Shown: positions 1 to 4,519 of the stretch, one piece after another
Numbering within the stretch: the stretch's first letter is position 1
Layout of the letters: every line of letters starts with the position of its first letter
IMG/VR virus record: IMGVR_UViG_2734482581_000010
Source: a virus
Taxonomy: Duplodnaviria; Heunggongvirae; Uroviricota; Caudoviricetes
Length of the DNA stretch: 4,519 nt
Direction: 5' to 3' (one strand)
The notes under the pieces: generated by a model
Told to the model about the DNA's origin: nothing
Database searches by the model: none
What the model saw: only the letters and a program-made list of their open reading frames with translations
Program-made: the position numbers and the translations under genes

Positions 1-60
1 CTCTCGTCTGGGGAATATCTCCCCGGCAGCCTTCAGGGAAAAATATCATCAGATGGCTGC

Positions 61-414
61 TTAAAAAAAGAACAAATGGTAGTGTCCGCTATTGCCAGTA
101 CACCTCAATTGCTCTGCGGCTTCGCTCAGAGCTGGCGTATGTTCCCGGCCTACTGATTCACACAGGTAATCAACGAAACCGGACACCAGTTTTCGTTCGC
201 GAGGCGTGATCGCCCCACCGACCGGAGTCCAGTAATCGAAACCCAGTTGCAGGAGTTTGAAAAAACGCTTGTGGAATGCGTAGTTACACACACGCTTAAA
301 GTCTGCGTGTATCCACTCACCTATTTTGATTTGATGCAGAAAATCGCAACTCTCCGGCGTCGCCGGGAGAAGTAATCCGGAAGAGGTTTGTTTGACCAGT
401 TGTATATGTGCCAT
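61..414 (-). CDS. hypothetical phage protein, about 117 aa from ATG 414..412 (the ORF track's longer version starts at an in-frame TTG at 456)
   Basis: Open frame on the minus strand. The ATG at 414..412 has GGAG about 8 nt upstream and lies 38 nt after the stop of the upstream gene. The TTG at 456 overlaps that stop but has no better ribosome-binding site. The C-terminus reads ...HLFFF from a T7 run (A7 on + at 63..69), so the 3' end may be affected by a homopolymer error. No recognisable family. Confidence 0.45.
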   Translation of the reverse strand: MAHIQLVKQTSSGLLLPATPESCDFLHQIKIGEWIHADFKRVCNYAFHKRFFKLLQLGFDYWTPVGGAITPRERKLVSGFVDYLCESVGREHTPALSEAAEQLRCTGNSGHYHLFFF

Positions 415-3057: not shown

Positions 3058-3711
3058 CTACTTAACAACCCTCGAATGGCTAACATTCGGACGCCAGCTC
3101 TCCCAGTTAAAATTCACCCAGCGCCCGNNNNNNNNNNNNNNNNNNNNNNNNNNNNNNNNNNNNNNNNNNNNNNNNNNNNNNNNNNNNNNNNNNNNNNNNN
3201 NNNNNNNNNNNNNNNNNNNNNNNNNNNNNNNNNNNNNNNNNNNNNNNNNNNNNNNNNNNNNNNNNNNNNNNNNNNNNNNNNNNNNNNNNNNNNNNNNNNN
3301 NNNNNNNNNNNNNNNNNNNNNNNNNNNNNNNNNNNNNNNNNNNNNNNNGATAGCTGCCGCTAAGTGATTCTTCCCGGTACCAGGTTTTCCGCTGAACGCA
3401 AAATTTGTACACCCGGTCATCAGTTCATCGGCGATGGATTTCGCCTGGCTTAACGCGTATCGCTGGCCGTCGTTCTGCACCTGGTAATTCGCAAACGAGC
3501 ATTTACGGTGCAACGGCTGGATGCCTGAGCGATTCAGAATTTTTTCCACCCGCAACTGGCGATTCAGGCGGTTGATCTCCTCGCTACGTTTCTGGCCTTC
3601 AGCAAGTTGCCACTCGCGCCACTCCGCTACCGTTCTGAATGGGGCGGTTACATGTGGCGGGGTCAGTCGGCGGATGCGTTCCAGAACGCCGCCTGTCGCA
3701 ATATTTTTCAT
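3058..3711 (-). CDS. dnaC: DnaC-like replicative helicase loader (AAA+), phage-type; CDS interrupted by the N gap
   Basis: The N-terminal 121 aa align with my recollection of E. coli DnaC (NRSGIQPLHRKCSFANY vs NRSGIRPLHQNCSFENY) and include Walker A FSGKPGTGKNHLAAAI. The C-terminal WVNFNWESWRPNV matches the DnaC tail WVIFNWDSYRSRV. The middle of the gene falls in the 221-N gap, so length and frame across it are not real. Confidence 0.85.
   Translation of the reverse strand: MKNIATGGVLERIRRLTPPHVTAPFRTVAEWREWQLAEGQKRSEEINRLNRQLRVEKILNRSGIQPLHRKCSFANYQVQNDGQRYALSQAKSIADELMTGCTNFAFSGKPGTGKNHLAAAIXXXXXXXXXXXXXXXXXXXXXXXXXXXXXXXXXXXXXXXXXXXXXXXXXXXXXXXXXXXXXXXXXXXXXXXXXXGRWVNFNWESWRPNVSHSRVVK
3128..3348. 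other. run of 221 N (assembly or scaffold gap, or masked region)
   Basis: Directly visible as n characters. It lies inside the DnaC-like gene. Confidence 0.98.
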
Positions 3712-4110
3712 GGTCCGTTACCCCCTGAAGCCTGGCGGGATCGCACTGTCCGGCAACGAGACGGTGTTAACCTGTCGGAGCAACGTCTCAGGCCGAACAC
3801 CTTTCGGCGCGAACAGGCCCTGGTATTCATTGGCGATGCTGTGTCGAATCACCTGCTCAGGTGTAAAACCCTGCTGACGGAATTTTTCCAGTTCCCGTAT
3901 CGCCCCGTTAGCGCCCTGCTCCGTTCGAATCGGTTTTCGCAATGCCTGTCTGAACCGGACCCACTCATGCCAGAGTGTTTCCGGCAACCAATCGGGCAGC
4001 TCAATAGCCTCCGGCTCGAATTTTTTAGACGCTCGTTTTTGGCGAGGGGGAGATCAGTATTTAGATCTTCCTCTTCCTCTTCCTCTGGTAACGCTTTTTG
4101 ATCCGTTTGT

Positions 4111-4129
4111 GTAACGCTGGCAGCGTTAC
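4111..4129. repeat. 19-bp dyad-symmetric site GTAACGCTG-G-CAGCGTTAC (iteron-like)
   Basis: Perfect 9-bp inverted arms around one central base, read directly from the sequence. A GTAACGC half-site also occurs at 4088..4094. Confidence 0.45.
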
Positions 4130-4318
4130 CTTTTCGTTTCAGTTCGCGTATTTTTGTTACTCGCTCGTTTGTAACCGCCCGTTTTTTTTAGAGCTTTTTC
4201 CGTTATGACGTTCAAAGTTAGGTAGAGAAAGCCCTCCGTCATTTTCGACCAGCCATCCAACCTGAATTAACGCATCAGCAAAACCAGACATAAAAGTGAT
4301 GCGATCTATTGCACTTTT

Positions 4319-4339
4319 TGTAACGCCGCGAGCGTTACA
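4319..4339. repeat. 21-bp dyad-symmetric site TGTAACGC-CGCGA-GCGTTACA (second copy of the same motif)
   Basis: Perfect 8-bp inverted arms with the same GTAACGC-N5-GCGTTAC core as 4111..4129. Related GTTAC-N10-GTAAC at 4156..4175 and a TTAACGC half-site at 4267..4273. Confidence 0.45.
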
Positions 4340-4394
4340 ATCTGCATTACCGTCTATCATTTGTTGATCCGCCCATGCCCAGAAGCGAATAACC

Positions 4395-4519
4395 TGAGGT
4401 AGCCTGAGTTTAACGGACACTCCTTCCTGAAATAGAATGGCATCAGAAGGAGCTAATAATGAGCAGAAAAACCCAACGTTACTCTAAAGAGTTCAAAGCC
4501 GAAGCTGTCAGAACGGTTC
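4395..4519 (+). mobile_element. left end of an IS3-family insertion sequence (partial; continues beyond the window)
   Basis: Terminal sequence TGAGGTAGCCTGAGTTTAACGGACAC starts with TGA and has GGACAC at positions 21 to 26, the same layout as the IS3 left inverted repeat as I recall it. It is followed 64 bp later by an OrfA-type start. Confidence 0.75.
4459..4519 (+). CDS. IS3-family transposase OrfA, N-terminal fragment (continues beyond the window)
   Basis: ATG at 4459 preceded by AGAAGGAG with a 6-nt spacer. Translation MSRKTQRYSKEFKAEAVRTV matches the N-terminus of IS3-family OrfA proteins; I recall this exact start from an IS600-like element but cannot verify it. Confidence 0.8.
   Translation, partial: MSRKTQRYSKEFKAEAVRTV

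Follow-up and report, generated by a model that had tools for sequence, protein, structure and literature searches.

Introduction

IS600 belongs to the IS3 group of the IS3 family of insertion sequences and was first described in Shigella sonnei. Elements of this family have a length of 1.2–1.55 kb and canonical ends which start with TG. They transpose by a copy-out, paste-in mechanism which passes through a circular intermediate. Their DDE transposase, OrfAB, arises by −1 frameshifting, and 3 bp of the target are duplicated. The replication module YdaU/YdaV, known from the Rac cryptic prophage of Escherichia coli K-12, is analogous to the O/P pair of phage lambda. IS600 is one of the five insertion sequences which have expanded in all Shigella species, and insertions of this expanded set are a main source of pseudogenes in Shigella (PMC7373316).

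We have analyzed a stretch of 4,519 nucleotides (the window, one strand) from the viral record IMGVR_UViG_2734482581_000010, assigned to Caudoviricetes. A preliminary description, made from its letters alone, had proposed that an IS3-family element is inserted at the 5' end of a phage replication module, at the right end of the window. Our overall reading, which we hold with high confidence, is that the window shows a replication initiator gene split by IS600, as part of a prophage relic bounded by two copies of this element.

The IS600 Element

The last 125 nt of the window (4395–4519, plus strand) are the left end of IS600. All 125 of them are identical to copies which RefSeq names IS600, and near-identity has been judged against copies so named. 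This segment aligns over its 125 bases in 3236 E. coli records, and in 3209 of them the best match reaches 99% identity or more; the top matches are 100% identical. The RefSeq name of the matching copies is 'IS3-like element IS600 family transposase', with a programmed frameshift. An imperfect terminal inverted repeat (IRL, TGAGGTAGCCTGAGTTTAACGGACACT) occupies approximately 4395–4421. It is followed by the Shine-Dalgarno sequence of orfA (GAAGGAG, 4446–4452) and by the start of orfA at 4459 (MSRKTQRYSKEFKAEAVRTV...). The window stops 125 nt into the element and includes the first 20 codons of orfA.

The ends of IS600 were defined from three independent copies, whose flanks resemble neither one another nor the window. 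The three copies part from the window immediately upstream of TGAGG. By chance, a C precedes TGAGG in all four sites, and the intact target also reads C-T at this point. The last two bases of the boundary are formally ambiguous, the canonical TG end of IS3 elements fixes it at 4395. A boundary further to the left, suggested by extended E. coli matches from query positions 108–113, was considered and rejected: The three sites were aligned, their flanks are unrelated, and the extension is due to chance. The position proposed in the preliminary description for the beginning of the terminal repeat, 4395, proves exact to the base, both from the alignment of independent copies and from the point where homology to intact genes stops (4394/4395).

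Complete copies of IS600 have a length of 1264 bp, TGAGG...CCTCA (L003, L004, L006). Their termini agree with the 5'-TG / CA-3' rule: TGAGGTAGCC... at 4395 in the window, ...GTACACCTCA at the opposite end of full copies. Between IRL and IRR, 19 of 27 positions agree. Two of the three E. coli sites show direct repeats of 3 bp around the element, ccc in one case and tac in the other. A complete copy at the very junction seen in the window is found in the S. sonnei assembly L006 (8763–10026); only 3 of its 1264 positions differ from an E. coli O145 copy. The 100 amino acid product of this junction copy matches PF01527 in Pfam, the 272 amino acid product matches PF00665, PF13683 and PF13333. Two reading frames, orfA (HTH_Tnp_1) and orfB (rve), are thus present, annotated with a programmed frameshift which is known here from the annotation. 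The IS3-family element of the preliminary description can be named as IS600 from its 125-nt identity, ends, length, open reading frames and target duplication.

The Interrupted Initiator Gene

A pseudogene of a YdaU-type phage replication initiator occupies positions 3718..4394 on the minus strand. It contains codons 36–262, the 3' part of the gene, as seen when it is aligned with the intact genes (789 bp) in prophages of E. coli. The region 3700–4394 has matches in 1421 E. coli genomes, the best ones with 97–98% identity. Intact homologues are found in L001 and L002 (CDS 4019–4807, 789 bp, 262 amino acids); they are part of a Rac-like prophage, with ydaT on one side and a DnaC-like ydaV on the other. 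RefSeq names one intact record 'phage replication initiator YdaU family protein'. The intact 262 amino acid protein matches phrog_2509, 'replication initiation protein', over residues 1–262 (profile 1–277 of 277, E 1.2e-89). The gene order also agrees with an initiator: The cro/ydaT early region precedes the gene, and the DnaC-like helicase loader follows it directly. "Replication module" appears to be a fair label, with the function of the initiator taken from family annotation (PHROG and one RefSeq name).

The intact protein has two distinct parts. Over its C-terminal 124 amino acids, it shares 81% identity with the Rac-type YdaU of L011. Its N-terminal part, of about 135 amino acids, is unrelated to this L011 protein, which is listed with a match to PF07120/DUF1376. 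Such a modular build, with what would be a distinct origin-recognition domain, fits the expectation for an O-like initiator. In Pfam and NCBIfam, no match above threshold was found for the intact 262 amino acid initiator, PF07120 (DUF1376) included. The last 19 residues show a weak match to the C-terminus of DnaT (E 0.002–0.006, far below the cut-off). We have therefore filed the initiator neither under DUF1376 nor under DnaT.

The homology to uninterrupted ydaU-type genes reaches as far as 4394/4395: It begins with GGTTATTCGC, and everything upstream is IS sequence in a three-way alignment. The intact ATG, with an AAGGTG Shine-Dalgarno sequence ahead of it, is located 104 nt past the junction, so the gene in the window starts at codon 36 and lacks codons 1–35. 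The preliminary description had stated that the minus-strand initiator frame reaches the junction without a stop. We find this frame open from the stop codon at 4157–4159 across the junction and into IS600. It had also stated that the GTG at 4420..4418 is the only start in this frame. The GTG is indeed in frame and inside the IS, but it is not the only one: The ATG at 4360..4358, which corresponds to Met-52 of the intact protein, is in frame too. The native N-terminus is nevertheless missing from the gene in the window, as had been suggested. The alignment with the intact genes of L001 and L002 places the original start beyond the junction and not downstream of 4394, and the PHROG profile aligns from residue 1 of the intact protein.

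The Other Side of the Element

Outside its run of Ns, the window is 100% identical to several S. sonnei assemblies, L006 among them. The window ends at 4519, and we infer the far side of IS600 in its own strain from these identical genomes. Six of the seven long S. sonnei assemblies we have read (L006, L008–L010, L012, L013) contain a complete 1264-bp IS600 and then the 5' piece of the initiator gene. Nucleotides 1–107 of this gene, ydaT, a P22-Cro-type gene and the repressor gene are found just across the element in all six. There, a 41 amino acid reading frame contains initiator residues 1–36 (MASNWIKLEVITPDKPEIFRLAEILNIDPDAALGKV) and five residues encoded by the IS.

The flanks of the element in these six assemblies are gggaaGGT-IS600-GGTtattcgc, and the intact gene reads GGGAAGGTTATTCGC. 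In the window, one copy of the target-site duplication is located at 4392..4394 (ACC on the plus strand, GGT on the gene strand) and corresponds to nucleotides 105–107 of the initiator gene. When IS600 and one GGT are excised in silico, a continuous alignment to the intact E. coli prophage is obtained across the junction, with 98.9% identity. Its only gaps are an insertion of two bases and a deletion of ten in the initiator gene, described below, and one base in ydaT. Both the right inverted repeat (CCTCA end) and the 3-bp duplication (GGT/GGT), which the preliminary description had expected outside the window, are thus found in S. sonnei assemblies. Under a simple insertion, the plus strand would show ACCTTCCCTAATGCGGCATCTGG when reading on from the right end of IS600 (CCTCA). 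The flank beyond this end would be ...GGGAAGGT, and the 5' fragment of ydaU would appear on the plus strand past the right end as ...CTAATGCGGCATCTGG.

The proposal that the insertion had removed the N-terminus and the promoter of the replication operon can only be kept in part. Both are uncoupled from the body of the gene in the window, but they are not deleted: In six assemblies they are separated from it by 1264 bp, with the GGT duplication. The initiator gene was split by a simple transposition and was not deleted at that step, a conclusion about which we have little doubt.

A different possibility is that IS600, or recombination between two IS600 copies, has deleted the 5' end of the initiator, the promoter and the immunity region in the source strain. 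We consider this unlikely. The seventh long assembly, L007, would agree with such a deletion, as a different, unrelated sequence follows this IS600 copy on its far side. The counts of contigs also point in this direction (344 with the reading frame of the 5' fragment, 492 with the chimeric reading frame of the 3' side), and events of this kind are known at the locus, since a second IS600 there has no target duplication. However, the lower count of the 41 amino acid reading frame may reflect gene-calling thresholds alone. The 5' fragment and a perfect GGT duplication are kept in six of the seven long assemblies (L006–L010, L012, L013), and the window is 100% identical to one of these six, L006.

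The probability that the junction is an assembly artefact, with the IS sequence as a misattached repeat overhang and an uninterrupted initiator in the real genome, is practically negligible. It is true that both ends of the window lie about 107–125 nt inside IS600, which is typical of the ends of de Bruijn graph contigs, and that the window contains a scaffold-type run of Ns. On the other hand, many independent assemblies contain an identical junction inside Mb-scale contigs, where the complete IS and the target duplication are also present, and we have rejected the artefact. The junction also falls on the exact terminus of the IS, and the gene contains further lesions, consistent with a long-standing inactivation.

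Some other assemblies show unusual neighbors. In three S. sonnei drafts (L011, L014 and L015), what follows on the far side of this IS600 junction is the ydaV gene of another, Rac-type prophage; L014 has repeated N-containing blocks. The odd joins in L007, L011, L014 and L015 may correspond to later rearrangements between IS600 copies or to scaffolding errors. As to the region upstream of the split initiator, ydaT codes for 101 amino acids in L006 (8273–8578) and for 140 in intact prophages, with a 1-bp gap relative to E. coli: This gene also seems to be frameshifted.

The same junction is covered by none of 5,426 complete E. coli genomes, and its exact 39-nt pattern was not found among GTDB species representatives. 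GTDB places Shigella under E. coli, which would presumably fit the absence of the pattern from the representatives.

Further Lesions in the Initiator Gene

Two other lesions are found in the pseudogene. The first one is a +2 frameshift in a run of eight T (4182..4189, alignment columns 419–420), which is A8 on the gene strand; intact genes have six. It ends the reading frame that spans the junction, at 4157. The second one is a 10-bp deletion (TCCCCCTAAA on the gene strand) at 4045..4052 (alignment columns 557–566), with a breakpoint which is ambiguous within a repeat. This deletion (~4051/4052) lies between two 7-bp direct repeats, TCCCCCT, and leaves the C-terminal part (3718–3987) in the third frame. 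Each of these lesions inactivates the initiator independently of IS600. Such damage is to be expected once selection on a gene has ceased. The frame breaks mentioned in the preliminary description are therefore real as far as the initiator gene is concerned.

The same gene contains two perfect 19-bp palindromes, GTAACGC-N5-GCGTTAC, at 4111–4129 and 4320–4338 (two found, 0.02 expected by chance). In L001/L002, a third copy precedes the ATG by about 12 nt. These palindromes may be candidate binding sites for the initiator, either as origin or as operator. IS600 now separates the upstream palindrome from the two internal ones. A hexanucleotide repeat, GAGGAA, which codes for a poly-Glu linker, is found at 4066–4086. 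Its copy number varies among S. sonnei: L008, L009 and L012 have 18 additional bp, L013 has 24.

The Open Reading Frame at the Junction

A chimeric reading frame of 87 amino acids spans the junction on the minus strand (4157..4420). It consists of a GTG and eight codons from the end of IS600, followed by initiator codons 36 to approximately 107, and it is ended by the +2 frameshift. Exactly the same reading frame has been called on 492 contigs, and all the names given by the sources are Shigella sonnei. In 397 of 481 index blocks, the longest contig carrying it has only 2–5 kb.

We have considered the possibility of a new functional gene, in which IS600 supplies the GTG and perhaps an outward promoter, so that the 87 amino acid fragment is expressed, for example as a competitor for origin binding against related phages. 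The open frame with its GTG across the junction, found verbatim on the 492 contigs, would speak for such a gene, and the fragment still includes some of the N-terminal domain peculiar to initiators of this type. Its conservation, however, is explained by the clonality of S. sonnei. An AAGGAG directly abuts the GTG at 4420, without a spacer, as read from the sequence, which is unfavorable for initiation. A consensus scan of the minus strand between 4100 and 4519 found no sigma-70-like site, which counts as weak negative evidence. The reading frame ends at a frameshift and not at its native stop, and the rest of the gene is decayed. A functional fusion of IS and initiator is extremely unlikely and has been rejected, given the missing spacer, the lack of a promoter-like site in the scan and the frameshifted end. 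The 87 amino acid reading frame is probably not a functional gene. As to its orientation, the left end of IS600 faces the gene remnant, and transcription of the remnant would have to leave the IS in the direction opposite to that of the transposase gene.

The Helicase Loader and the Run of Ns

The second gene of the replication module is ydaV (3058..3711, minus strand), which codes for a DnaC-like helicase loader. In the window it is only broken by a run of Ns. The intact copy in L006, with 248 amino acids, matches NF009043 (E 8e-154) and phrog_50, 'DnaC-like helicase loader'. At the DNA level, this loader is 94.7% identical to the Rac-type ydaV over 722 nt.

The run contains 221 Ns (3128–3348). 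Genomes which are otherwise identical have 314 bp at this place, 93 more, in frame. Over the same stretch, another Rac-like prophage has a paralogous ydaV of nearly the same sequence, with an exact run of 142 nt. The Ns replace 314 bp of intact sequence, so we have rejected a lesion, deletion or frame break in ydaV. From this replacement and from the near identity of the paralogous gene, the run looks like a scaffold gap of estimated size.

The Second IS600 and the State of the Prophage

The left end of the window is also part of IS600, a feature which was not mentioned in the preliminary description. Positions 1..107 (plus strand) contain the right end of a second copy, with the 3' end of orfB and IRR, which ends in ...GCCAGTACACCTCA at 94–107. 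It has the same orientation as the copy at 4395. These 107 nt are identical to the right end of IS600 in L003–L005 and to positions 14407–14513 of L006. Direct copies of IS600 thus bracket the whole prophage stretch of 4287 bp.

This second copy is followed by the 5' half of a DUF1367 gene (108..414, minus strand), which matches positions 1–102 of the 198 in PF07105 (E 1.5e-46) and has lost its 3' end to the second IS600. The intact gene codes for 199 amino acids in L002 and L011. In full assemblies, the flanks of the second copy are aac and att, without a target duplication. Beyond it, a fragment of an integrase gene, coding for 160 amino acids, is found beside modC. The lack of a duplication indicates that an IS-mediated deletion or a recombination took out the late region. 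In the same assemblies, the lysis genes are broken by other IS and no late genes are found next to the DUF1367 gene. The defective, immobilised prophage proposed in the preliminary description is well supported by these features: IS600 at both ends, an integrase fragment, IS in the lysis genes and missing late genes. Most likely, the window itself is a short-read contig which ends in IS600 repeats.

Several other genes in the window are apparently intact, all on the minus strand. They code for a hokD-type Hok/Gef toxin (990–1202), a QueH epoxyqueuosine reductase (1373–2059) and a protein of the Rem family (453–740, PF27490). The 4.3-kb block (initiator remnant, ydaV, DUF977, queH, hokD, rem and DUF1367 remnant) might be excisable, in the manner of a composite transposon, or the 87 amino acid fragment might hinder related Rac-like phages. 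We regard both as very unlikely. If the block were mobile, its varied neighbors in the drafts L011, L014 and L015 would be due to real mobility and not to scaffolding errors.

Course of Events

The identity and boundaries of the element, the truncation of the gene, the target duplication and the further lesions have been observed directly. The course of events that we propose starts with a transposition, in the manner known for the IS3 family. In an ancestor of the S. sonnei strains which carry the insertion, IS600 would have transposed into codons 35–36 of the initiator gene of a Rac-like lambdoid prophage. This would have been a simple insertion, with duplication of 3 bp of the target (GGT). 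Codons 1–35, the ribosome-binding site and the ydaT-cro-repressor region would then remain on one side of IS600. Codons 36–262, ydaV, DUF977, queH, hokD and others would lie across the element from these, with its left end towards them and with their direction of reading away from the transposase gene.

As a consequence, the initiator could no longer be made, and the downstream module would be uncoupled from the early promoter. A slip of two bases in the A-run and a repeat-mediated deletion of 10 bp would have hit the initiator again at a later time. The second IS600, at 107/108, would record a deletion or recombination which removed the late region. We infer that the downstream genes are no longer transcribed and that the events took place in this order.

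Comparison with Known Systems

The results are of use for annotation. Hundreds of S. sonnei assemblies contain 'bacteriophage proteins' of 87 and 41 amino acids, they are the two halves of a single initiator pseudogene split by IS600. A contig of about 4.5 kb, which is recurrent in short-read assemblies of S. sonnei, corresponds to the interval between two copies of IS600. The Rac-like prophage found here cannot replicate from its own module. Beyond annotation the import is small: This is one more case of IS expansion as a driver of genome decay in Shigella.

When compared with IS600, the element in the window shows no visible difference: The 125 nt, the ends, the length of 1264 bp, the imperfect repeats of about 27 bp, orfA/orfB and the 3-bp duplication are all the same. 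The order of genes (repressor, cro, ydaT, initiator, DnaC-like loader, DUF977) is the same as in the YdaU/YdaV region of the Rac cryptic prophage of E. coli K-12. The initiator is similar to Rac YdaU in its last 124 amino acids (81%), but it differs in the first 135 or so and in being a pseudogene.

In summary, this is an event of an ordinary, already known type, IS-driven prophage decay. As in the pseudogene formation and prophage decay described for Shigella (Hawkey et al. 2020, PMC7373316), a coding sequence is broken by an IS of the expanded set, a single prophage remnant has accumulated several IS, and copies without target duplication mark deletions or rearrangements: There is no difference in kind.
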